DNA of 64,000 bases from Eledone cirrhosa (taxonomy: Eukaryota), in NCBI GenBank assembly GCA_964016885.1, contig OZ024743.1:194804001-194868000 (forward strand). The letters are read 5' to 3'. Each line of letters begins with the position of its first letter. Position 1 is the first letter of the stretch. Both the position numbers and the translations under genes were made by a program. Shown here in pieces: positions 949 to 57,867 of this stretch. The notes below the pieces were generated by a model. It did not search any database. It was not told the DNA's origin and saw only the letters and a program-made list of their open reading frames with translations.

Positions 949-1004
949 GCACAGGCATTAGTTGATGTTTCATTTCGGTGTTATCATTAAGTCAGGTAAG
1001 AAAG

Positions 1005-2090
1005 GGCAGTGGATTGTCGGAATTGGTAGAACATCTTAGAAAATACCATTGCGGTATGTTACTGACTCTATACATTCTTGGTCAAATTCTGACTAGGTCT
1101 ACCTTGCTTTTCTCAAAAAATTATGTTTTCACGTATTGTTATGATTTAGAGAGTCAATAAAAATCCTCTCATCGGTTGAGTGTCATTTCGGGTTTATTAT
1201 ATGTCATGTAAGGGCGGTGGATTGGCAGTATCGGAGGAGTCGGACACCATGCGTTACAGCATGGAGTTGCGGTCCTTTATGGTCTGAGTTCAAATCCCGC
1301 CGAGGTTTACTTTGCCTTTCATCCTTACGGAGTCGATAAAATAAGGCACCAGTAACGTACTGGGGTCGATTTAATCGACTTTTCCCTCCCACCAAATTAC
1401 TGGCCTTGTGCCTAAAGTAGAAACAATTATTAGTCAGGTAAAAGGCGGTGGGTTGGCAGTATCGTTTGATCGTCGTACAACTTGATTTGCAGAACAGAGT
1501 AACGGCCCTTAATGTTCTTAGTTCAAATCCCGTCGAAGTTATCTTTGCATTTCATTTTTACGGTGTCGATAAATAATGCACCAGTAATGCTATGGGGTCG
1601 ATTTAGTCGAGTTTTCCCTCTCCTCAAATTCCTGGCCTTGTGCCTAAAGTATTAATCATTATCAGCCAAGTAAAGGACGGTGGATTAGCAGTATGGATTG
1701 GGTGACGTACAACATACTGTGGAACATATATTTATGATCCTTAACTTTCTGAGCCCAAATCCCACCGAGGTTCTCTTTGCCTTTGATTCTTACAGGGTAA
1801 ATAAACAAAGGACCAGTAATACACTATGGTTGATTTAATCAAATTTTTCTTCTCCAAACATTGTTGGCCTTGTCTCTAAAGCAGGTAACAAAGGGTGAGG
1901 CATTGGATCAGTTGGTAGAGCATCGGTGAAAATGTTATTCAGGTATTTCTTCTGACTTTTTAGATACTAATTTTAAATCCCGTTGAGGTTAACTTTGCCT
2001 TTCATCATTCTGAGATCGATGAAATATGTTATCAGTCAAGTACTACGTAGTCCCAAATTTGTTGACATTGTGTCTAAATTTGAAATCATT
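1005..2090 (+). mobile_element. Head-to-tail array of five tRNA-derived SINE copies (~1005-1110 partial, 1212-1432, 1443-1662, 1677-1882, 1895-2090)
   Basis: Repeated head GGCGGTGGATTGGCAGTATCGG (A box), GAGTTCAAATCC (B box), central GCCTTTCATCCTTACGG.GTCGATAAAATAA and tail CTGGCCTTGTGCCTAAAGTAGAAACAATTATT. Confidence 0.85.
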
Positions 2091-2800
2091 GGCTTTGTGT
2101 TAAAAAACAATTATTTATCCGGTAACTAATCCATTCCCCGATTAATTTTAATACCCGGATGGTTATATAATTGGCAAAGGACTTCCGTCACACTTTCTGT
2201 GACCTTTCAAAGACTATTTGCCTCATATATCTCCTCTTAAATTTGATTTTGTTTAATGTACTCCATTTTGTCTTTCTCTTGAATGAGATGTGACGGTTAA
2301 TTAACCACCCGGTTACTAAACTTACCAAGGTGTTGTTTAGATTCCCAACCAATTAACGAAACTAAAGTCAAACTCAACTTCTGTATGTATCTTTCTTGGT
2401 AGCATGACTCTCCCACAATATAACAGTATCAGTTTCAACGCACGATTTCATATCAAACATTTTGCAAGCAAAAGAGACACAAATATTAAGAACAAATTCT
2501 GACGTTTCTTAATAGGTAGTGTGGCAGCTGCTGACAGATTCTAGTTTTATCAAAATCATCAGCAAATCATAGTTTTCATGAGCTACGTTCAGTCGCTAAA
2601 CATTTAAAAATGTAAATTACGATGCATTTTGACTAGTATAATTTGCATAGTTATAAACCGTAAAGGCGGTAGAGTGGCCGTATCGATAGAGCACGGGACA
2701 ACATGCGTCGCAACAGGATTTGAACTCAGCACGTAAAGATCGTAAGTAAATGGTGCGAAGCTGTAATAATTATTTTAATCTACATCGTCTACGATAGGTC

Positions 2801-10294: not shown

Positions 10295-10536
10295 AAATAT
10301 ATATATATATACATTTATATATTTCTATGATTTTTTGTTCACGATCGCCTGTATTATTACCTTTATGATTTTTTGTCTTTAATTTTCCGGTGTTTACTCC
10401 CCCCTCCCTACGTTTTTCTGTTCCTTTTTCCCTTCCCCGTCTCTGCCTATCCTTCGCACTCACCCCTTCGTTCACTCCACCCCGCTTCACACCCCCGCCC
10501 TCTCATCCCTCCCCCTGCTTTCACCCAACGCCCATC

Positions 10537-13330
10537 ATGGCCCACCTGAGATCCTTTCTCCACCAACTCCACAATCGCCTCAAACTTTTCCTCACCCCCT
10601 CCTTCCACCCTGCTATCTCCCCTCCGCCCTTCAACACTCCTACCTTCTCTTCGCCAAAACCCGGCACTCCAGCCACATCCATTTCCTCAGCCACTGCCTC
10701 CGCCTCCACCTTATCCCCCTTGGCTTCCGTCTACACTTCCACCCCTCCCCCGCTGCTTCCCCCTCCGCGCAACGTATCCTCACCCGATCCTCACGCCTTC
10801 TGATGCGCAACTCCATCCGCGCCTCCCATTCCACCCTCCGCCTACTTGACCACCAACTGACCCCCACCCTCCTCCGCCTTTACTCCACCTGCCACCCCCT
10901 CCTCGCCCAAGCCATCCTCTCCTTCATCCACAACCTCAACCACAACCTCTTCTCGTTCCTCAGCTCCACCAAAGCCCGCAAGCTACACTCACTCCCCTCC
11001 CCCATCCACCACCACCCGCCCATCCCCATACGCCCACCACTCTCCACCTCTCCTCCGACCCAAACTTCCACCCAATCTCCACCCCTCACCACACCCTCCC
11101 TTCCCTCCCCAAACACCCAAACCCCACCCCTTGTTGTCACCATACCCCCTGACCCCCCCCCTCTCCGCACCTGAGCGCTCACTCCTTAGTAGAGGCCTTC
11201 GCTTCATACCCCACACTTCGCTCAGCGACGATTTCCGCACCCGAACGGAAGTCGAGCGATTCGTGCGACGCACTAAGCTACAGGCACATTTCAGCCGAAC
11301 GCCACCGTCTTCGGACGCCCCAGACCCGTTTCTCGCCCTGGGACGACGACCATCTTCTTGTACGCCGGCCCCAGGGCAATTTAGCACCCTGGACGCCTTT
11401 GTCGATGCCAGCCGTAGCGCAGTAAATCGTTTCGACTTCCGCCACCGTTCCAAACGGCACAACATCTCACGGGGCGAACTCCTCGCTCTCCGCTCCCTCC
11501 GTAGCCGAGATGACATCGTCATCAAACCGGCGGACAAGGGAGGCGCCGTGGTGGTATGGCGCGCGGACCTCTACACGGCCGAAACCCTCAGGCAGCTCTG
11601 TAACCCCCTCTTTTACCGCCCTCTACCCTCCGATCCCACCCCTCTCTACCAACAACAAGTCTCCTCCACCATCAAAGACCTTATCGCCTCCTCCCTCCTC
11701 CCCCCCACCGCTTCCCACCTCATCGTCCGCACACCCCGCACCCCGACCATCTACTTCCTCCCCAAACTCCACAAACCCGACAACCCCGGCCGCCCCATCG
11801 TCTCCGCTTGCAGCTGCCCCACCGAACTCATCTCCGCCTTTCTCGACTCCCTCCTCGCCCCCCTTGTCACCACCCTCCCCTCCCACATCTCTGACACCAA
11901 CCACGCCCTGCGCATTTTCGACTCCTTCACCTACCTACCCGGCCCTCAGCCATTCCTCTTCACCCTAGACATCAAGTCCCTCTATACCGTCATCCCCCAC
12001 GCCGACGGCCTTCGCGCCCTCAAACACTACCTCGACCTTCGCCCCTCCCCCATTCCCTCCACCCCCACCCTCCTTCGCCTCGCCGAGCTGGTCGTCACCC
12101 TAAATTGTTTCTCCTTCTCGGGTGTGTTTTACCAACAGGTCACGGGGGTAGCCATGGGCACAAGAATGGGCCCGAACTATGCCAACCTTTTTTTTGGCCA
12201 TGTTGAGGCCCAAATCTTTGCCCAGTACACCGGCGCCACGCCCGAATTGTACGGTCGTTACATTGACGACTGTATCGGAGCCACGACCCTCACCCGAGTA
12301 CAGCTCGACTCCTTTCTCTCCTCTTCTGCTCCTTCCACCCCTCCCTCCACTTCACCACCTCTATCTCCACCACCCACGTCCACTTCTTGGACATCTCCGT
12401 CGCCTTCGACCCCTCCCACCACTCCCTCGTCACCTCCGCCTTCTTCAAACCCACCGACTCCCACTCTTACCTCGACTTCACCTCTTCCCACCCCACCCAC
12501 ACTAAACTCTCCATTCCCTACTCCCAACTTCTCAGGAACCGCCGCCTCTGTAGCCGAGATGCTGACTTCGAGTCCCAGGCCCTTTCCCTAGTCAGCCATT
12601 TCATCCGCAGAGGTTACCCCCCCTCTCTCGTCCACACCGCTCTCACCCGCGCCCGTGCTATCCCCCGCTCCACCACCCTCACCCCACGCCACCGCACACC
12701 CACCCACCGTCTCCCCTTCCCCATCACCTACCACCCCTCCACCTTACCCCTCCACCGCACCATCCGCCGCTTCTTCCGACGCCTCCAGTCCGACCCCTCC
12801 ACCTCCCACATCTTCCCCACCCCACCACTCCCCTCCTTCAAACGCGCACGCAATCTCCGCACCCTCCTCGTCCACAGCTCCCTACCCCCCAATCCACGCT
12901 CCGTTTCCCCCCCGGTTCCTTCCCCTGTTCTAGGCCCCGCTGCAACACCTGTCCCCACATCACCAACACCACCACCTTCCAGGGTCCCAACGGCCACCCT
13001 CTCTCGGTCCGGCATGCCTTCCGCTGCACCTCCTCCAACCTAGTCTACGGACTTCGTTGCACGGAGTGCAGCGCGACTTATGTCGGACAGACGGGACGTC
13101 GCCTGGCGGACCGAGTCACGGAGCACCTCCGGGACATTCGTCTCGGGGGCAGTTCCCCCATCGCCCGCCACTTTGGTGGCCCTGGACACTCCGCACGCCA
13201 ACTCACAGTCTGTGGCCTACTCCAGTGCCACGGAACACCCGCCCATCGCCTTACGGTCGAACAACGTACTATCTTCATCTTACAGACCCACACTCCCCCC
13301 GGCCTGAACTCCCCACCCTTATTCCTTTAG
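10537..13330 (+). pseudogene. PLE polyprotein (RT + GIY-YIG endonuclease), ~4 frameshifts
   Basis: HFLSHC..LIPLG N-terminus; IKPADKGGAVVV, YFLPKLHK, GRPIVS, LDIKSLYT, QVTGVAMGT, RYIDD; KPTD..YLDFTSSHP; CSRPRCNTC linker; NLVYGLRC..C..TYVGQTGRRL..R..EH; PPGLN; TAG at 13328-13330. Confidence 0.92.
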
Positions 13331-24754: not shown

Positions 24755-25690
24755 CAGGGTGCTGACGATATCTAGGAAAATAGAACACAGCAGTTTTATT
24801 TTTAAAGATATATTTATCAAACTTCGGTCAGTTTGTCTTCATGATTTGTTCTTTCGATCTCACTCGATAAACCCGCCATTGTCTTTGATGACGGCATCAA
24901 GGCGGCCTCGGAACGGGCTACAGGCTTTCGTCACTGTCCCCCGATTTAGGCCCCTAAAGGCACTTGTGATCCTGACCTTCAGATCGTCTTTCGTATTGCA
25001 GCTAGATCTGTTGGTGTCTCGCTCCACTGCGCCCCACACAAAGAAGTCGAGGGGGTTGCACTCAGGCGAGCTGGGAGGCCAGATGTCAGGTGAAGGGTGG
25101 TCGACAAAGTTCTTTGACAGCCAGGTTGGATCTTTCGGCTGGTATGGCAGGGCGCTGAGTCCTGCTGCCACACGTATAGCCAACCTGCAGCTACCTGGTC
25201 GATCCAGGGCTTTACTACCTCGCTCAGAACGCGGATGTAGCCATCGGTGTTTAGCTTGAGTCCCTCAGAGAAGAAGTGAGGTGGCATGACGTCACCTTGA
25301 CTGCTAACGACACCTAAGACCAACTTTGTCTGCATGACTCTGGGTACGTATTTGGATGAGGCAGCGAGCCACCTGTTGTTCTGGGAGTTGATCTTCTGGT
25401 CTTGGCAGAAGATTTTCTCGTCAGACAAAAACCACAGCATGTCTCGCTCCGGTGGGTGTTTCAACTTGTTGATCAGCTTCTTTGAGTGCTTCAGTCGCTT
25501 TTCTTGCATCGCCTTTGACAGAAATTGTCCTTTCCTCATCTTGTATGAAACGTAGCGAATGTCTTCATGTACCACCAGCCTAATGAGCTTTTCATCCACG
25601 CCTTTCTCCCTTGCAATGGCACGCATCGACTTGCCTGGTTCATTGTTGATGATATCCTGAACTTCAGCGACGAACTCGGGCGTTACTAAT
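24755..25690 (-). mobile_element. Tc1/mariner DD37D (maT) transposon, 5'-truncated, frameshifted transposase
   Basis: FLSDEKIF, VWQQDSAPCHT, WPPSSPECNPLDF; 37 residues between the 2nd and 3rd Asp after restoring a 1-nt deletion; stop at 24860; end TA|CAGGGTG at 24753-24761. Confidence 0.88.
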
Positions 25691-26087
25691 ATAGGTACAA
25701 GGCCATCCACTGTGGGGAAGAATTAAATTGTTGAGCCTTAAATGGTACTTGAATTTACCGACACCAGAAGGATTAAATATAAATTACCTAAAATCATTTT
25801 AACCAACTCGAACTATTCTGCAAACACAACGCTCAAATGTTTTCGTAGTATCATACTTCTCTATTTTAGCTTGATAGATTATGAAAAAATAAACCAAGAT
25901 TGTCGAAGAAAATATTGTGCGGTATATACTTATGCTCCTTATGATATGAGTTCAAATCCCCCCTAGGTCAGTTAGATTAGCATTTTCCGAGGCCAATAAA
26001 ATAATGTATCAGGTAAATAATGGTGTCAAAATAATTAATTGTTCACTCACCATCTAAAATCTAGCTTTGTAGCTGTATATCATAGTA

Positions 26088-26312
26088 ATAATGATGGTTT
26101 CTTATTTAGGCACAAGGCCAACAATTTTAGGGTAGGAGGAAAGTCAATTAAATTGACCCCAGAGCGTTACTGGTACTTTATTTTATCGATCCTCTAAGGA
26201 TGAAAGGCACAGATAACATCAGCAGGATTTGAACTCAGAACATAAACGGGCGTAACTCTATCCCGTAACGCATGTTTTTTCGACGTTCTACTGATATTGT
26301 CAATCCACCGCC
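26088..26312 (-). mobile_element. SINE, long form
   Basis: Full reverse complement of the consensus; tail-to-tail with an old + copy at ~25868-26090. Confidence 0.85.
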
Positions 26313-26611: not shown

Positions 26612-27138
<527 letters not shown>

Positions 27139-41899: not shown

Positions 41900-43105
41900 G
41901 AGAATAATAATAATAATATATTAATAATAATTATGTCCGTTTACAATTGTTTCGCTACTCAATATAATATTTTTGGATCAAATGATTATAGATCATTATT
42001 GATCTGGGTCAGTTGAAAATAATTAACTTAGGTATAGTTAGAGCGGCTCATCGGAACTTCAAAAGGAATATAAATTAAAATAAGGAAAGAAAGTTACATG
42101 AATGTAATATTCCATATATTGGTATTTTACTATGGTGTCCTGGGTATATCCATTGTCTGCCATAGTCGAGCAGTATTCTTCTGTCGATGCTGCATTGTGT
42201 GAGATCTGCCTATGGGTAACAAGATGGCGGCCAATGGATATTACCTTACTAATTAGAGGGTGGTTTCAGGGGAAGTAACTCCTCGAGAAATTCGAAATTG
42301 TGGGTAGTTTATAGTTAAGAAGTGCTAATTTTTTAATTTTTTAATTGAGAGACAATGTAAGAGAGGTAACTTATAATTATCTAAGTTAGCTATAACTATT
42401 TAACTTATTAGCTATAAGTAAAAATGGGGCTAGATGACTATGTTGGGTCAAATATTCTGTTGGCGAAGGAATTAGCCCTTCAATGTTGACAGCTAATAGT
42501 AACCTCCGTTCTATCGTTAATCGGTATAGGTCGTGATAGAGTTATGTAATATGCTTCGGTAAGACAGAGGTCACAAGAGTTTATTCGTCCATTGAACGGT
42601 TGGGCCGTAGCCAATATATCCCATGTTAGTGAGTGTTCAATGTTGGTTAGTTTAATGTTTTTAATGAGCCTAGAGATGTCGAACATCTGTTGTTAGGGTC
42701 TCAGAAGGAAAAAGAGTGCTCGTTATAGCGTACCTTAAAAGGGTTAGAGGTAGAGCCGATATAGGAGCTGGTATGTGAAGCAGTTTTAACTGTGCACCTA
42801 TAAACTATATTGGGTATCAGGTAATGTCCATTTAGTGGGCATGCATTAGGGTAACGGCAGTTGCATTTACTTCTGCGGTTAGTGAGAGTAGGGTTGTTTA
42901 AACTAAGCGGTTGGTCTGTGCTAGAAGGATTAGATAAGGGAGGTGTTCTACTAGAGTAAGTATTGGTGTAGTGGCGTGGTGTATTTAATGGGTGTGGTGT
43001 TACCGCGGTGTGGTAGTTATACTGTCTTAGTTTATGATGGTTACTGAATGCGATGTGGCTAGCTAGGTTAGGTGTTGTGGAGAATGAGATTTTAATGTTG
43101 TCATA
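41900..43105 (-). mobile_element. Penelope-like element, Naiad-type, 3' fragment (GIY-YIG + 3' UTR + hammerhead)
   Basis: IKISFSTTPNL, KCNCRYPNACPLNG, NIVYRCTV, YIGSTSNPFKVRYNEHSFSF, LTWDIL, CDLCLTEAYYI, INDRTE..CQH. Confidence 0.85.
41939..42057 (-). ncRNA. Type I hammerhead with extended stem II and a core mutation (CCGATGA)
   Basis: GTT-CCGATGA-GCCGCTC...GAGTAGC-GAAAC-AATTG-TA-AAC on the minus strand. Confidence 0.65.
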
Positions 43106-45697
43106 CAATCAGCCTTGTATGCTGGAAGAGGTTTGACGTCTTTGAGATTTTATCAATGTTGCAAAGACCATTTTCCTTCACTACTATCGGTATTTTGAAC
43201 CTAGAATGCGCTGTTCTCACACCAGGCATCAGTGTTGCGGCAATGCCAGATGACGCAATAGCAATAGCCACGTCACCGTTTCCCCTGACTTTTGAACGAA
43301 TTAAGTTTATCCGGAATGTCTTTCCTGTTCCACCTGGAGCGTCAATGAAAATCAATGCAGATGTGTTCGTCTCTAAACTGTTACAAACGAAGTCGTGCAC
43401 GTGTTGTTCACTATTCAATAGAGGCTCCGTCTCTTCTACAAATCGTCGCTGCTCTTCTCTGCTGTATTGCAATTCATGCAATAACTCCAAATTGCCACTA
43501 TCCTGATTAACAACAATATTATTTGGCCTTAGCAAGTTAAAGTCACTAAGACTTTTGCCCAGGTCGTTAAGTTTGTCTTCAACATACAGAAGACATGATC
43601 ATAATGTCTCTCGCTAATCAAAAGGTTAGAGTTTCTGGTAGCCCTTTTTTTCTCTTTGAAGGTAATCCTCAGACAGTGAATGCTTAAATCGAACCCATAA
43701 AGCATTGGAATTGTCAATTTCCGTATTTGTGAGGAGCACGATGAATAGATCTCTGATGGCTTTGGGAAGCCTTTTTCGCTCAGCATCTTCCAGAGTCTGC
43801 TGCCAATGATCATCCGATTGAAGCAAACCTTTCTCTCTGCAGACGTCTTTGAATAATGGCAGGAGTTCTCCATCACACATTTTCAAAGAGTTGAAGGATA
43901 CTGGCCCTTTGACGTGATGCAGAAGGAGTTTTAAATAATACAGGTCACCATTTCGTGGAGAAACAGTGTATACTCCTCCCAAAATGTTCGCCTCAAAAAT
44001 TCCTGGATACTGCTCTACTGTTTTCCCCACGTTTCTCCTTTCCCATCTCTTATTACTCCAAGTGTAAAACTTTGGGACATCGGCATAATACAATGTTTTT
44101 GCAAACGGATCCCGATCGCAAAGATTCATGAACTTAGTCAGAGTCGTCTTAGCCATGTTATTGTTTACTTTAACAGCAGCATTGACCCGAAAGAAGATTT
44201 GATTTTCCTCAGGTAGATGAAATTGAACGCGAACTACGGCCGGTTCTCTCTCATCAATTGAAAATCCAAGGCAACAGCTTCTGAAGGACCGATATATCTT
44301 CCTGTTAAAAACTGTATTATCTCATCTTCCCTGTTCACTCCAAACATTGCCTGATCACTGCCCTTCATGTTACATTTGATAACGTATTTGATCGATTTCA
44401 CGGAAGAGCACATCTCCACGTTTAGGTGGCAGTTGAACAGTTTTAATAGTTTCATATTGTAGGGAACCACCCATTCCGAAGTTATATTTCGGCTTCCCCT
44501 TCCTTCTTGGTGCCCCTGAAATCCTCCCATTCCTGGAGACCGTCTGCTGTACACATGATAAGAGTCCTCTCCACACAATATATATTTATTGAAAGGCTTA
44601 GGGTACCGCTTACTGCACGTTCCATCTTTCCAACACGGCGAATTGTTAGAGCAATTCGGACCGTGGATCATGTGCTTCAGCACCAATTCGTGACCCTCTG
44701 GATCTTTGTTTGGATCTGGTATTTCGGCTTGAACAAATTTATCATATTCCTGCGGTTTGGACTTGGGGGCTTCATTGAGTCATAGTAAACAGTGCACATG
44801 AGGAAGACCTCCCTTTTGATATTCGACTGTCAGCATGTAAGCTATGCACTTGCCAAATAGGCCATCTACTCCAGTAAGATACTTTCTTAACAGTTTCCGC
44901 TTCAGGTCAAATACTCTGGCAATTAAATCTGGCCTGTCATGTGGCTTCTGATTCAGGAATAGGTTTTGCCGGATTTCAGGCCAGTTTGGATTGCATGTCA
45001 TTGTGATGAAGAACGAAGGATTGCCGTACTTCCGTATGTACTTCATGGCATCCTGGCATCGCTCCATCAAAAATCTCGGTCCACCGACAAATGTGGAAGA
45101 GAGTATGATTCGCCTGCCAATATTGTGAAAATCGTCATCATCATTCAATGCGTCAGTAAGGCCCTTGTATGTTGTAGATCGCAATGATGTTTGATTCATT
45201 CGGATGTATTGCAGTCTATCTTCTTCAATCTTCGCAGCCATGTCAACTAAATATTGCTGAAATAAACTACCGCCTCTGAGAATTTGGTTGAATTCATTTT
45301 CATTGTTCATTGTTTGATAGGCATAGTAGCGCATTAGCGTCAACTTCTTGTTGTTGCTCATTAACAGCTCATGATGCCATCCGTCATCGCCAAAAGGAAA
45401 ACATAGAACATACTGCAAACTGTCATAGGACCGATGGGACTCTGAGATTATTTGCAATTGTCAGCCTTTTTCTTTCAACACAATGTGCCGTGCTTTTGCT
45501 TGAAGTTCGGTACTGTTTTGTATAATAAGAGAAACTTCGTTTGCAGTTTGTGCATTGAATCTTCTCTCATGTTCCATTGCTGGTCACCTATCAGGATCAA
45601 TAATAATCGAAGCTTCGGGAATATTTTTAATTTGTTCTTTGCCATTCGAAATGAAGCAACGTAAGGGTTATATTGTCTGAGTATTATTTCCAATAAT

Positions 45698-45871: not shown

Positions 45872-46380
45872 ATTATTTCCAATAATTCAACTATGTCACG
45901 CTGAATGCCATCGTTATGGAGTATCCTGATCCTCAAATCAACACTATCCTGAGGATCCAAGAAGTAAATTTGAAGAAAATGGGTTGTTCGTTGGCATTAG
46001 GGGTTAAGGAACCGAAGTAATGGTGAATTTGAGCATGAATAATGATAGAAAGATTCCATCCACGCCTTGAGGAACGAACTTCTTCGGCCCCAAAAGATGT
46101 CATTTGGAACAGGAAGTTGTATTGTCTGAGGTTCTTCCTGAACTCGTTTGCCCGAGGCTGATCAGTACTAAATATACTGTGAAGTTCCTGGGGTAAAGGC
46201 TGCAGATTCCCCAACCTGACTTTTTCATTCATACAGCAAAAGTTAGCAGTTTCACCATGAAAAAGCATTGCATGACAACAGACACAGATCTTATTCATCT
46301 GTCTAACTTCAGCAGAGAGGTCACGTCGTTGAACTGTCCTTGCTCTATCCCTAATTGTTTGTTGGCAAAGACGTTCAGTT

Positions 46381-46860
46381 CTCCGAGCGTGCGATTCATG
46401 ATCTCTCCTTCTTTTGCCACTTTCCCTCTGTTCTGCCTGACGCTCAGCTCTCCGACCATCAGATTCATGATCTCTCCTGTTTCTGTTTCTTTCCCTCTGT
46501 TCCGCCTGACGCTCAGCTCTCCGACGATCCGATTCATGATCTCTCCTTCTTCTGTCTTTTTGCCTCTGTTCCGCCTGATGCTCAGCTCTCCGACCATCCG
46601 ATTCATGATCTCTCCTTCTCTGTCTCTTTCCTTCTGTTCCGCCAGACGCTCAGCTCTCCGACCATCCGATTCATGATCTCTCCTGTTTCTGTTTCTTTCC
46701 CTCTGTTCCGCATGATGCTCAGCTCTCCGACCATCCGATTCATGATCTCTCCTTCTCTGTCTCTTTCCCTCTGTTCTGCCTGACGCTCAGCTCTCCGACC
46801 ATCCGATTCATGATCTCTTCTGCTTCTATCTCTTTCCCTCTGTTCCGCCAGACGCGCATC
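46381..46860 (-). repeat. 69-bp (23-aa) tandem repeat, ~7 copies, Helitron N-terminal charged repeat
   Basis: CTCCGA anchors at 46381, 46450, 46519, 46588, 46656, 46725, 46793; encodes RLAEQRERDRSRRDHESDGRRAE-like units; two 68-bp units shift the frame. Confidence 0.9.
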
Positions 46861-51420: not shown

Positions 51421-51459
<39 letters not shown>

Positions 51460-51670
51460 AATAATGGTTTCTTTATTGGCCAAAAGGGCTAACACGAAGA
51501 AAAACATTAGAAACGGCACAGAACAGTACAGGACAATACAAAGTGGGTTTTGATCGTGTAAACAGGTTATAAAAAGATAGAAATCGGGATAGAAATGAAA
51601 AAAAAATTCAATGGCCACCATTGCAAGCGCCCTCTCTCAGTTTTCCACTCCTCAGTCTACAGACGCATAC

Positions 51671-54600
51671 TCAGAGCGGGCCCGTCATTCGGAGCAGACT
51701 CGCCAATTTCACCGACCTTTCAACACACTTACTAGAAGACAGCACTTGCCTCTCCATCCTGATTTTCCTCTTCAAGTGAAACTTGAAAAAGTTAATCAGG
51801 GATTGGCCGGAGAGGAAAGTGTCCGTCTTCGATCCTTTCAACCTTGTCCACCACACAATCTCTTTTGCCATGGCTACCAGGCAGATGGAAACTGCCTGCC
51901 CTTCCTCCTTTTTAAAGAAGGATGGTGGGGCTATCTGCACAATGGACTCAGTCGATAACCGGATCCGTCCTACACGGGACAGCAGCTGTTCAACATAGCT
52001 CCAGAAGTCAGCAATTCTCGGGCACTGAACGTTGGCGTGCAGGGCGGTTTCGTCGCCCTGCGCGCATCTCGGTAGGATCGGATGACAGCACCTCCGTGTC
52101 TGTAGAGCTTATCCGGAACCGGCAACGCTCCTCGGTAGCACTGCCAGGCCAGGGATTTCTGGAAGATGTCCATAGGCCCCGGGCTGAAAGTTCTCTTGAA
52201 GAGAGCGAACAGCTGATCTTCTTCGACGCCCAGGGTCTCCCCGAGAACGTCGTCGCTCTTTCCCCCCACTAGCCCTCTATAGAACGCCGAGGTGGTTGTT
52301 CCACTGATACTAGTGCCCAACTGATGGAGGGCGGTTAGCGCTTGGAGACATTCCAGCTTCCCTCAGTCTTTTCCTGATCCAGGACTGCATCTCTGTCAAG
52401 GAGACGAGGTGGGGAAAAGCGCTTATGGCAAACGGCGACCACACCTGTTCACCTTCAAGGAAGCACCAGAGATGTCGCAGCCTCAGCGCATGTTTGCTCA
52501 TTATCAGCCACGGCATGCCTAGTCTTCCACGCAACGGGTGTTCGACATAAAATGGATCGTCTGACCATGGGAGCACGTCCCTTCCGCAAAAAGCGGAAGA
52601 GAAGGCGCTCAATTTTGGTCAGAGTTGGGCGGGGGCAAGATACGACGGTCAGGCGGTAGTAGATGACGGAGGCGATGTACGCATTCGCCACCTCCGCCCG
52701 AAACTTAAGAGACAGCCTCCTCTCAGCCCATTTCTGAGTGAGAGGGGCCACCCTGCTCGTCACTTCGCTCCAGTCTTTCTCCATATGGAGGCCGGACCGA
52801 ACTAGACGCCAAGCAATTTAACAGGTCCTTTCGTCCAGTGCCCCACGACGCTGTCGGACGACATGGACTTGCCTTCCAGGTGCCGAGTTGCAAGCCCACC
52901 GACTTTTCCTGGTTTATTGTTGCTCCTGTCACCGCTTCGTATTCCTTGAGCGCAGTGTCGAGCATCTGGACGTGTTTGGTGCTCGACACCACCACGGTGA
53001 CGTTGTCGGCGTAAGCTGACACGGATTTCCCACATCCCAGTTTGCGTGGGACCCCCCCTCATCGTCTACAATTTGTGCAGTAACGGCTCGAGGGCCAGTA
53101 CATACAGGAGGGACGAGAGGGAACAACCCTGGCGGACCGAGCGTATGGTGCTGAAAGGCTGCGACATGTGACCATTCACCCTCACAATCGGGCAGATGTC
53201 GCTGTGTATCCCAGCGATCCAGCTACAAAAAACGGGCCTTAAGCCGGCCGCCTCAAGGACCGCAGCCAGGTACTAATGGTCGACCCTATCAAATGCTTTA
53301 GATTGATCCAAGTTAATCAGGGCCCCACACGTGCCAGGTTCCTTAACCACCCTCTCTATGATGTATCGCATGAGATGGAGTTTATCGTGGATGGATCTGT
53401 CCGGAATGACGCATGTATACGCCTCTCCCACCAGATCACCGACGACAAGCACCAATCTCTTTGCTAACACATTGGCCAAAATCTTGCACTCTGTGTTTAG
53501 CAGTTATGGCCCTGAAGTTGTCTATAACGTCCCCCTTGTTCGGAACTTTTCTCAGCAGTGCCACCGCTCCCCGGCTCACAAAACTGTGAATGCTCCCGTT
53601 CTGCTACCATTTACAGTAGACATCTGTGAAGAGGTCACCGAAGAAGTCTGGCATATACGCATAAAGTATGTAAGGAAGACCATCGAAACCTGGCGATTTA
53701 CTCCTCATGCAGTCAGACATCGCTTCCCGTATTTCACCTGCTGTTATCGGCTTTCCGCAGCACTGCGCTGTGGTAGTCGAGAGCCGCGGCAGTCCGTTGA
53801 GGTATGCACCGAAGTCCATACTCCGATCCGGCCCGCCACCGCTCCTGAACAATTGAGAAATGTGCTGTTGAAAAGCCGCACACATCTGTTCGGGTTCGAG
53901 CAACATGCGCCCGTTTTGATCAGCGAAAGGACCGAATTGTGGACCTGTTGCCACGTCGCGTCTCCACCACCCGGGCCCATCGAACGGCTCTCGTCCCCTC
54001 GCATCGGTTGCGTTGCTTGTCCTAAACGCCTCTTCTAGCTTTCTAACTAACTCTCCCTCTACTCTATTTTCGTCTATCACTACTCATTTTCTAAACCTTA
54101 TCGATTCTACTCTAATAGCCCTTTTCAGGGTAAACCACCACCCGTTGTTGACGATCGCACCCGTCAACGCACACTTAACTAAATCGCTAATCCGGTCTCT
54201 GTAAGCTTTGCGCACCGGGAACGACACGCTCAGCTTGCAGTAACCAGGCCCTTGCCTATGGAGTCTATCTAAGTCAACTTCACAGATCACAAATTTGTGG
54301 TCCGTGTAGTCGACTACTTTAAATTGTGGACAACCTACACTAGCCTTATCTGTTTCCCTACAGAATACCCTATCTAAATACGATCTGGATGACCCGATGC
54401 GGTTTGACCATGTCCACATTGGCATAATCGGATAATCCAGTCTATACCTGTCAGAGGGTTCAAAACGTATGAGCAGGTTGTTGAGGCTTTTACACCCTCC
54501 TGCGCTGTCTACTAGCTCCACATAATCCCAGCGCGCATCTAAGATACCGTTCCAGTCGCCCACTAACACTAAAGTGCAGGACGTTCCAAGAAAGGTCTCT

Positions 54601-54927
54601 AGACGTCTGAAGAAATATGGCCGTCCTGCCCCTGCTGGTCACGTCCAGCACCACCGACTTACCTTCTGGGTCCAGGAAGATGGCCCGTATGGCTAGAGCC
54701 TCTCTGGAAAAGCACAGCAACCCCTCCCTCGATCCTGGACGGTTGGGAGATGCGTATACATCGTAGCCGCCGATGATCAGTGCGAAGGCTCGTACTTCGG
54801 AAATTCTGGTCTCGCTGATGGCCACCACGTCTATGGTTAGTGACCTGAGATAGTTAAGCCGGTGGCCCTGCTTCCAAGATGACCCCAGGCCACGTACATT
54901 TATACTGCCTATTCTAAGTAAGGCCAT
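51671..54927 (-). pseudogene. LINE ORF2 (APE endonuclease + reverse transcriptase)
   Basis: MALLRIGSINVRGL, ISETR, LVGDWNGIL, SYLDRVF, YTDHK, KSPGFDGLP, LDQSKAFDRVDH, VRQGC, AYADNVTV, INQEKS; many frameshifts. Confidence 0.92.
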
Positions 54928-54987
54928 GTTTGGTGAGGAATGGAGTAAGTGAGAAAGGATCACTTACCTTGATCGTGTGGGAAAGGG

Positions 54988-56480
54988 TCAGTCGAACCGT
55001 CCCTTTGGCTGATCATGGGTGTTTCGAACAATGATGTCGGTGTATATCCTCTTGGTAACCGACCTTCTGAAGTCTTCAACTGCGTTGGAGAATGTTTCTT
55101 TTAAAAGTTTATAATGTTCTATTTTGATTTCAATAATCTTTATATTTTGTACGAGTTCTTCATTTGCCATGTTTATGACTGTGTACTTTTGGGGTGGAGG
55201 GTGGTTTTTGTTGCTGTTCTCTTGTTGTTACTGTTGGGTGTGTGTGCTTTGTTGTGTTTGCGATGTTGGTGTTTTTGGTGATGCTTGTGGTGGTGTGGTT
55301 GGTGTTGGTGGTGATGCTCGTGGTGGTTATGGTGAAGATGGTTCTGTTGCTGCAAGTCTCCTTGCAGCCTTTACCACTCTTTGTTTGCCTTCGCTTTTGG
55401 AGGGTGAAGCTAAGGGTTTTTTTTATCTTTTGTTTAGTGGCAGACTGTTTGCCACTTCCCTCACGCCTCATACTCCATGTCGGATTCCATGGCGTCTGGG
55501 AGGGGTACGAGCTCCACCGCTGTTGGTGGTGGTAGTGGAGCCCGCTCCGGCGATTTTGCCCCCGGTGTAGCTACTGCGACTTTTCGTGTAGCCGCCACTG
55601 CTGCCGCTGCTTTAGTTGTCTGTGGCCTTGGTATAGGTGCCACGGACGTTGCCCTCCTACTCACCAAGGAATGGTCTTCTGTCTCTGTTGCCTCTCCTGC
55701 TCTTGGTAGCAGCGGATCAGCCGTTGGAAGGAGGGGGGGATCTTCTTGGCTATCTTCTGCGGGCAGAAGGCCCTGAGGTGACCCTTCTGTCCACTGAAAT
55801 AGCACTTTAAGCGCCTTCCTTCCACGCTTATGGGGAGTTGGAGTCTTTCCTCGAGGTCCATGATATCTGGGCTGGCCTCGTTGCACTCCTGGTTAGTTTG
55901 TATTAGCATTTGTATGCCTATTCCTGACCAGTTCTCTCTTCCCATTACTTGCGACTCACCATGGCTCTTGCGGCTGCCATCTTCTCCTCGGTGACTAGCA
56001 CCGTCTTTATATTTTGGGCCACACCTGCGAAAGAAGTGGCCCCTTTTTCAGCGGCACCATTATTGCTGCTGTTACTGGTCATGTTGTTGGTGCTGTTGCT
56101 GTTGCTACTGCTACACACGGCGTTGTTGGTGGTGTTGCTGTTATCACTGTTGTAGTTGGTTGTGTTTTTGGGGCCACTCTTGTTGTTGTTTTCGGTGCAA
56201 TTTGTGTTCTTGCTGTTGGTGTCGTCATAGTTTATTTTCTTGTTAGTGGTGTTAATATCGTTGTTGCATTTGTTGTCATTTTTTCTGTTGTCTGTATTTT
56301 GGTTGTCGCTGTTATTGTTGTAGTTGGTATGGTAATTTTTTTTAAATTAGTGTTCTCAGTGTTGTTGTCTTTGTTCACGTTGCTTGTGGTGGTGTTTGAT
56401 GTATCAATTTCTGTAACCCTCCTCTCAATTTTACGCCGTTCTCACACGACAGCAGACATATTGCAGGGGTGGGTAGCTCA
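54988..56480 (-). pseudogene. LINE ORF1 (gag-like, Thr-rich, degenerate CCHC knuckle)
   Basis: LPISVEGRRLKCYFSGQKGHLRAFCPQK; long Thr-rich low-complexity segments. Confidence 0.7.
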
Positions 56481-56699
56481 ACCATGTTTTTTTTTTCTTT
56501 TTAAAAGTAAAATGTTCAATTATTGTTCAAATATTTGGGCCAAAAGGCCCAAATATTATACTTTCCCCTTTCATAGGGCAAAGTCCAAGGGCTTATATCC
56601 CTTACACAACAAGAAATATTAAAATTAAACAACAATAATTATAACAGGTAAATAAAGCGACTTACTGGGAGCGAGCAAAAAGACGTCCAAACAGACCAA

Positions 56700-57097
56700 T
56701 AATAATAATAATACTTGTTTCTACTTTTGGCACAAGTCCAGCAATTAAACCAGTGTATTTATTCTATCGACCCCGTAAGGATGAAAGGCAAAGTTAACCT
56801 CAGCGGTATTTGAACTCAGATCGTAAAGGGATGTAACTATGCTGGAAAGCCTGTCCGACTCTCTACCGATACTGCCAATTCACCAATAATTATAATAATA
56901 ATAATAATATGTATATATAATTGTTTCTATTTTAGGCACAAGGCCAGTAATTACCCAGTGCATTACTGGTACTTTATTTCATCGACCCCTTAAGGATGAA
57001 AGGCAAAGTCAACCTCGGCGAGATTTGAACTCAGATCGTAAAGGGACGTAACTATGCTGGAAAGCATGGCGTCCGACCCTCTACTGATACTGCAAAT
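56700..57097 (-). mobile_element. Two tandem short-form SINEs (56700-56884, 56918-57097)
   Basis: Reverse-complement consensus twice, with (ATT)n tails. Confidence 0.9.
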
Positions 57098-57867
57098 CGA
57101 AGGTGCAATCGTATGTAAATATAATTATATAAATATGGTAGAATCGTTATACAAGTTAAAATTATTTGTGCGCGACACTTATTGCATATCCTTAAAATTC
57201 TTATATTGTATATCAAACGAATATAATATTCACCCATGTTTCAATAATAATTCTCACAGTCATGAGCTAGACGTGGATTCATTGAAAGAAGACGAAACCA
57301 TTAGTTTGTAGTTACATGTGTGGTATCTGACCACTAATCTACTGTTCAATGATTTATCGACAACTAATCAAAATATATAATACATAAACTTGAAGCTTAA
57401 CAAACTACGCTATAGTATAATGCGTTTTACATTAAAACCTTATGATCTTTATGACAAAGTCAACTTTTATTTCAATCATAATTATAAAACCGCACTAGAG
57501 ATAGATCTTTGATGATAAGTATCAATGAAACAACGATGTTTTGTTTACTTTGTTATCCATTAACTTTGTAACTGTAATCGCAATATCTATCTATCTATCC
57601 AGATAGATAATATATATGGCAGACCATATAATTTTTCCTTATATCGTTGGTTTTTATGGCTTTGTGTGTCTATTATGTAAATACATCATGTTTCAAAATA
57701 GAAAAAAAGTTTTGTGTAAATATATGTTCATACATAAGTATGTGTATAAACATTTAAAAAGACACAACGTAAGTAAGCATATCTATATTAATGATTAGAT
57801 ACATATAGACACTCCCACACATTTATATCTATACAGAAATACATATATATATTATTGCATATATACA

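Follow-up and report, generated by a model that had tools for sequence, protein, structure and literature searches.

An abundant short interspersed nuclear element (SINE) of Eledone cirrhosa is probably moved in trans by a group of Tx1-type long interspersed nuclear elements (LINEs) that insert into ATT repeats, a reading to which, from sequence comparison, we give a probability of about 0.8. The starting point was a stretch of 64,000 nucleotides of contig OZ024743.1 (positions 194804001-194868000; hereafter the window) in a genome of 3.0 Gb, where a first-pass annotation had noticed that the tails of a dominant SINE resemble the 3′ end of a Tx1/L1-type LINE and had proposed an L1/Tx1-clade element as the engine of the SINE. 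The SINE and these LINEs have a 3′ tail and an insertion site in common, use the site in the same polarity and are nested in one another, and the SINE is flanked by target duplications of measurable length. The LINE families involved are labelled A to E, names of our own; the LINE of the window belongs to family A.

A 3′ end common to the SINE and Tx1-type LINEs

The three tail strings on which the proposal was based are present at the positions given for them, and the window holds three occurrences of the 13-mer AAGAAACCATYAT where 0.44 would be expected, a count reached in 1 of 100 shuffles. Two SINE copies, at 26091 and 26612, had been compared with the LINE, and these match family A at 18/25 and 19/25 bases. 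They carry a minority ending: among 92 good SINE tails from a genome sample of 80 evenly spaced 10-kb stretches (800 kb), 64 showed TAGAAACA and only 4 showed AAGAAACC. The likeness nevertheless held for the majority tail, which, anchored at its end and leaving out the ATT run, agrees with family A at 17/25 bases (binomial P 1-2e-5). Measured in the same way, identity to the SINE was 17-19 bases for family A, 14-17 for B, 14-15 for C and 17-20 for D, and local-alignment p values for Tx1 ends ranged from 0.001 to 0.11. Seven ends of other LINEs (CR1-type, RTE and Dong/R4), four of them known from single copies, reached 2-10/25, with no local-alignment p below 0.06; about 11 LINE ends were tested overall. 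None of the tested ends of other clades fitted the SINE better, and CR1-type, RTE, RTE-X-like and Dong/R4-like ends were rejected as partners for want of a match.

Scored with a weight matrix derived from 76 SINE tails, a typical family A tail reached 16.5 bits and the window copy 9.4 bits, and none of about 1.6 million positions of the reversed genome sample reached 8 bits. These figures bear on the idea that the likeness is due to chance or to convergence in AT-rich, ATT-rich sites. The match is short and A-rich, and the two SINE copies first cited were the best-looking ones; but an end-anchored P of about 1e-5 without the ATT run, for about 11 ends tested, the empty null at 8 bits and the independent evidence from the target site make chance highly improbable. 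Another possibility is that an unsampled LINE of a different clade (L2, CR1, RTE, I/Nimb or other) is the true partner and the Tx1 likeness is secondary. Most published pairs involve CR1, L2 or RTE (PMC3747384; papers given by PMC number are represented here by excerpts), and our survey covered 800 kb plus targeted loci, with single copies for four of the seven control ends. Against such a partner, all 11 non-flagged matrix matches in the 800 kb were, by inspection, SINE pieces, Tx1-type ends or a Tx1 5′ untranslated region (UTR) hairpin. When the whole genome was searched with patterns that place a SINE-type stem in a context other than the SINE, there were 13 and 2 matches, all SINE copies, although a partner with other flanks would escape these patterns; the SINE stem combined with AATAAA had only 13 matches in the genome, every one a SINE copy. 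Dong-like elements, moreover, end in (AAT)n with opposite polarity. A partner from another clade is therefore unlikely.

The tail is the genuine end of several LINE families

A genome search with the 3′ 446 bases of the LINE returned 4,048 candidates, of which 40 were scored and 30 fetched. All 29 other fetched loci stop at the same place, ahead of an ATT run, which identifies the tail as the genuine 3′ end of the LINE. The loop reads CTTGT in 27 of these 29 loci and in the SINE, and CTTTT in the window copy. Exact family A tails number 1,884 genome-wide. In fetched DNA, the tail motif lay at most 520 bases from a match to the C-terminus of open reading frame (ORF) 2 in 71/86 cases, 11 of the remaining 15 being at the edge of a locus, and it was present in 46/50 further loci. 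That the LINE tail might be a degraded SINE remnant is ruled out by the common end of the other copies, by its position beside ORF2 C-termini and by the number of exact tails.

The ends of at least four Tx1 families (A-D) consist of a 3-bp stem, a C(T/C)TGT loop, AATAAA and GAAA, and the ORF2 C-termini of these tail-sharing families are 55-60% identical. In family D the motif is retained, but both the terminal repeat and the insertion site are (ATCT)n; the open frames of this family measure 1129-1150 amino acids. Family B has many open ORF2 frames of 1204 amino acids, and an intact relative (L155) contains the Pfam domains Exo_endo_phos (PF03372), RVT_1 (PF00078) and zf-RVT (PF13966). The best structural relative of intact ORF2 is human L1 ORF2 (E 4e-49; R2, 5e-21), and among named proteins the nearest to that of the LINE comes from Argonauta hians (73% identity over the reverse transcriptase region). 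Relatives at 40% identity occur in other organisms, and a metagenome scan gave no relative. The ORF1 region of family B holds an intact CX2CX4HX4C zinc knuckle, and an ORF1 with a CCHC zinc knuckle is a feature of the Tx1 clade. Because target specificity accompanies the family B ORF2 domains, the L1 likeness and the ORF1 knuckle, the LINE families fit the Tx1 clade, an assignment made from these features. No named Tx1 reference was among the matches obtained. Target-specific elements with an apurinic/apyrimidinic endonuclease (APE) belong mostly to Tx1 or R1 (PMC4640811).

A small putative hairpin precedes the insertion junction

Both kinds of tail can be drawn as a small hairpin. In an alignment of eight LINE and four SINE rows, the inner three stem pairs are paired in 36/36 cells, and the middle pair is C-G in 8/8 LINE rows and G-C in 4/4 SINE rows; two mismatches between the SINE and family A amount to one swapped base pair of the 3-bp stem around the CUUGU loop. 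Family B has A-U in place of G-C at the outer stem pair. The distance from loop to repeat is 16 nt in the SINE and in families A and B, and 17 nt in C. The SINE shares the loop and GAAAC with the Tx1 tails but lacks AATAAA, a signal kept in four Tx1 families and likely retained only by the LINEs, whose transcription relies on RNA polymerase II.

A related hairpin, GGGC-CTTGT-GCCC, stands in the 5′ UTR of family E (L153:8799-8833, plus strand; also L258-L272); it has the stem polarity of the SINE, and a short ATT run lies ahead of ORF1. Hairpins with a GC stem but different loops occupy a similar 5′ UTR position in family A (window about 56535-56550, minus strand) and in family B. The SINE hairpin might have been derived from, or given to, the family E 5′ UTR, since the two are identical at 11/11 hairpin positions, the family E hairpin scores 9.0 bits on the SINE matrix and is fixed in 15/15 copies, and Tx1 elements, which often insert directly behind SINE tails, could bring such a tail into a 5′ UTR. 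We consider this origin quite improbable: the family E hairpin has neither the GAAAC end nor the 16-nt spacing, and the hairpins of A and B at a similar position have other loops. It would in any case leave the identity of the mobilising enzyme unchanged.

The SINE and Tx1-type LINEs share a target site

Target duplications were sought in 87 SINE copies (the 92 above less 5 with short flanks or with merged or duplicate starts). Exact duplications of at least 10 bp flanked 25/87 copies, compared with a mean of 2.1 and a maximum of 6 for mismatched flanks, and those of at least 15 bp flanked 14/87 (null mean 0.23). The duplications are 10-18 bp long, and in a free search the repeat began exactly after GAAAC(A/C) in 24/31 cases. 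The base at -1 was C or T in 22/25, giving the site Y|ATTAT. Because the duplication starts right after GAAAC(A/C) and ATTAT directly follows the SINE in 67/87 copies, the "ATT tail" of the SINE is mostly target DNA. Reported duplication lengths are 7-18 bp for the L1 clade and 7-15 bp for RTE (PMC6007223).

The (ATT)n tail had been taken as a further sign of the partnership. We discarded it as a marker, since (ATT)n is likewise the end of a young CR1-type family and since in the SINE most of it is where the target duplication begins. Among 20 CR1 copies, 8 were truncated, and 0/8 of these had a duplication of at least 8 bp or an ATT 5′ flank. The terminal repeat of RTE is (GAT)n, and that of Dong-like elements is (AAT)n, as described above.

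What the SINE does share with the LINEs is the ATT target motif together with its polarity, as a comparison of insertion sites confirmed. Insertions of Tx1 families A, B and E lie in (ATT)n and have the orientation of the SINE. The family A 5′ end recurs after ATT runs in four other loci (4/4 mapped ends); among 20 intact family B copies, 19/19 mapped 5′ ends follow ATT arrays, 10 of which are the tail of another Tx1 copy; and in family E, which is defined by its 5′ end, the 5′ ends of 15/15 copies follow ATT runs. A SINE directly follows 17/70 Tx1 tails and 2/42 CR1 tails (Fisher p 0.008), an excess to which the longer ATT runs of Tx1 tails may contribute.

Other repeats also occur at these sites. 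Dong/R4-like elements (L155, L064, L158, L165) adjoin the same ATT/AAT arrays in opposite orientation, and mixed Dong-Tx1-SINE stacks are found. Directly 5′ of Tx1 and SINE insertions there is a further recurrent repeat, whose end is an AT-rich near-palindrome (ATTAATAATTATTAAT; L009, L052, L170, L268).

The SINE is abundant and of tRNA type

The SINE contributed 140 pieces and 2.4% of bases to the 800-kb sample. Its main 28-base tail has 132,470 exact occurrences genome-wide (control 0), and extrapolation from 92 tails per 800 kb gives about 340,000. It is about 190-225 bases long and of transfer RNA (tRNA) type, with internal RNA polymerase III boxes, an A-like box TGGCAGTATCGG and a B box GTTCAAATC, picked by eye from a profile; copies show 5′ truncations and target duplications. 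ARAGORN found no tRNA in the window, and Rfam found none on the one SINE copy searched. By eye, the SINE has no likeness to the 66-bp Meta domain of MetaSINEs in part of the published BivaMeta/BivaMD alignments, where three SINE motifs are absent.

Median divergence is 6.2% for a short subfamily and 13.8%, from its majority (n=20), for a long, older one. The medians for Tx1 families A (7.8%) and B (6.7%), which are search-biased and drawn from mixed subfamilies, roughly overlap with the short SINE, but the Tx1 ages are unreliable; family C stands at 20%, a mixture. At locus L146, a truncated SINE with an 8-bp duplication starting ATTAT lies within a CR1 3′ UTR, so the SINE was active after that CR1 insertion. 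About five old SINE copies stand head-to-tail in the window at 1002-2092 (plus strand), with a period of about 232 and similar short spacers between them.

The window copies

The tail of the family to which the window LINE belongs does match the SINE, but the window copy itself is interrupted by stop codons and frameshifts. Against intact family B ORF2 it is 53-79% identical in amino acids, in pieces, and a Pfam scan of its broken ORF2 pieces gave no match. The copy sits directly behind a SINE tail, the reverse of the nesting in which a SINE follows a Tx1 tail. The features are as follows, all on the minus strand.

51460..51465: short ATT run beyond the LINE end, either target-derived or a terminal repeat
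51466..56697: family A LINE, Tx1-type (L1-group), decayed and with internal deletions, recognised by translation; both ends present, the 5′ end at 56697
51466..51477: AATAAA, then GAAACC
51479..51489: tail hairpin with a 3-bp GCC/GGC stem and a 5-nt loop, CTTTT here and CTTGT in most copies
51660..54927 (low end approximate): ORF2 remnant with AP endonuclease, reverse transcriptase and C-terminal CCHC, with stops and frameshifts, from translation and comparison with family B
55000..56485 (low end approximate): ORF1 remnant, from translation, with a degenerate zinc knuckle near 55804
56698..56715: ATT array separating the SINE tail from the LINE 5′ end, the insertion site of the LINE
56716..56884: SINE copy, short subfamily, immediately upstream of the LINE and in the same orientation
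56917..57105: a further SINE copy, standing in tandem with the preceding one
26091..26312: SINE copy, long older subfamily, tail at 26091-26120
26612..26832: SINE copy, long subfamily, tail at 26612-26641

Other mobile elements of the window include a Helitron remnant at 43101-45460 (minus strand) with Helitron_like_N and PIF1 domains (Pfam) and, by translation, a Tc1/mariner-like transposase fragment at 24979-25722 (minus strand) with no Pfam match. A Penelope-like element at 10383-13330 (plus strand), also recognised by translation and without a Pfam match, has a C-terminal motif that we take to resemble GIY-YIG; tried as a match to the SINE tail, it was rejected with a best score of -24.8 bits. 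A 69-bp tandem repeat of about 7 copies lies at 46369-46855.

Mechanism and weight of the evidence

Target-primed reverse transcription is the established mechanism by which such an insertion would proceed. ORF2 would nick the strand reading AATAAT, presumably at T|A, and would bind the RNA 3′ end through the short stem, the CUUGU loop and the 16-nt spacer ending in GAAAC. The AUUAU that follows would pair with the nicked DNA, reverse transcription would start at the GAAAC junction, and the outcome would be a duplication of 10-18 bp starting right after the element. The ATTAT site may reflect a preference of the nuclease or the RNA-DNA pairing.

Several observations weigh against this account. 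The shared end is only 25 bases long and 68-80% identical; family B, the youngest and intact, matches the SINE less well (14-17/25; local-alignment p 0.01 and 0.11), family C gives p 0.10 with the short SINE subfamily, and the LINE survey was limited to the 800 kb and the targeted loci. As to the proposed folding of the tails, the hairpin appears in 7/8 minimum-energy folds and is missing from one, but its stability is no better than that of shuffled sequences (z -1.5 to +0.4). The fourth, outer pair is broken in 8/12 rows, and the covariation comprises two events in a structure inferred from the same sequences. At the target, 62/87 SINE copies have no exact duplication of at least 10 bp, and only 12/27 truncated Tx1 junctions, several of them poorly mapped, were flagged as ATT-flanked. 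Most SINEs are at short ATTAT sites while intact Tx1 copies are in long arrays, inside which the length of Tx1 duplications is not measurable.

Some of these points suit a variant of the same explanation, in which Tx1 moves the SINE in a relaxed way: only the target-pairing AUU repeats would matter, and the hairpin would merely testify that the SINE arose from a Tx1 tail. The fold energy is weak, the spacer and stem polarity of the SINE are unlike those of every Tx1 family seen, and in the excerpt of PMC4494074 the movement of SINEU is attributed to Tx1-Mar, no likeness of tails having been found for SINEU-1. Yet loop, stem pairing and spacing are conserved between the SINE and Tx1 families as far apart as their C-termini indicate, and the (ATT)n-ending CR1 family, given its truncated copies, suggests that an AUU end alone does not attract the enzyme. 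We therefore regard relaxed mobilisation as possible but doubtful, and put a hairpin requirement for recognition ("stringent" mobilisation) at about an even chance.

The probable mobilisation of the SINE by ATT-targeting Tx1 elements can be placed only at group level. Tail, target motif and polarity uphold the proposed clade, but the tail motif is carried by at least four families, D matching as well, so the driver among the ATT-targeting families A, B, C and E is not singled out. Family D is excluded because its target is (ATCT)n, though tail identity cannot separate A from D. The evidence favours borrowing of the tail by the SINE from the LINE, because the tail is common to families with such distant C-termini and would be far older than the SINE copies (6-14%).

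Should stringent recognition hold, an animal L1-group lineage that recognises a non-poly(A) RNA end through a hairpin would drive a SINE of some 300,000 copies, and its handle on the RNA, made up of the CUUGU stem-loop, the fixed spacer and GAAAC, would have been kept while sister families came to differ in target, (ATT)n giving way to (ATCT)n, so that template and target choice would evolve separately; we hold this wider picture to be evenly balanced. The Tx1 group is a candidate engine with two independent signatures, tail and target. The pairing also has a bearing on the time at which strict recognition of its own RNA was lost in the L1 group, the shared-tail L1-clade pairs of the review cited below being from monocots and a green alga. 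With intact ORF2 copies, a handle of 25 bases and sister families that differ in microsatellite target, the question of recognition is open to direct test.

Comparison with known systems

SINEs are the largest repeat class of octopus genomes (PMC8967140), and Octopus vulgaris has active L1-Tx1, CR1, RTE, Dong and SINE families, with no pairing stated in the excerpt (PMC13282606). The octopus SINEs OR1 and OR2 (Ohshima and Okada 1994, as cited in PMC4824008 and PMC4758252) are, like the present one, abundant tRNA-type octopod SINEs; the comparison is by description only, and no partner LINE is given in the citing passages. OK is a further octopus tRNA-derived SINE. OR1 and OR2 are classed as CORE-SINEs, which have a CORE central domain. 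In our literature search no Tx1-SINE pair sharing a tail and no partner for an octopus SINE came up; since the search extended neither to Repbase nor to subscription journals nor to the 1994 paper on octopus SINEs, an earlier record is possible.

In one compilation, 58 SINE-LINE pairs are tabulated, the L1-clade ones from monocots and Chlamydomonas, and Tx1 is mentioned five times, always outside the table (PMC3747384). Its L1-clade cases with a shared 3′ end are ZmSINE2/3 with LINE1-1_ZM (maize/sorghum) and SINEX-3_CR with L1-1_CR (Chlamydomonas; Ohshima 2013, PMC3747384), and the monocot pair has a hairpin with compensatory changes. The plant and algal pairs share ends of about 45-80 nt with poly(A) or poly(T), whereas the present pair involves an animal Tx1-type LINE, 25 nt and a microsatellite target. 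UnaSINE/UnaL2, an eel pair of the stringent L2/CR1/RTE type, resembles ours in its shared tail and small stem-loop followed by a short repeat; it belongs to a different LINE clade and is experimentally supported, while our pair is known from sequence alone (PMC3747384).

Among L1-group LINEs of the APE type, the fish Tx1 elements Kibi and Koshi also have microsatellite targets, (TC)n and (TTC)n, unlike the (ATT)n of families A, B, C and E and the (ATCT)n of D; the likeness is by description, and the excerpt mentions no SINE partner for them (PMC4494074). A parallel in mode of argument is SINEU and Tx1-Mar of crocodilians (Kojima 2015, PMC4494074), where Tx1 mobilisation was likewise inferred from a shared target and tandem insertions occur. 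SINEU has small nuclear RNA heads, poly(A) tails and a Mariner target, with no LINE like the 3′ half of SINEU-1 in the portion consulted, whereas the SINE of E. cirrhosa has a tRNA-type head, no poly(A), a 3′ end shared with Tx1-type LINEs and an ATT target.
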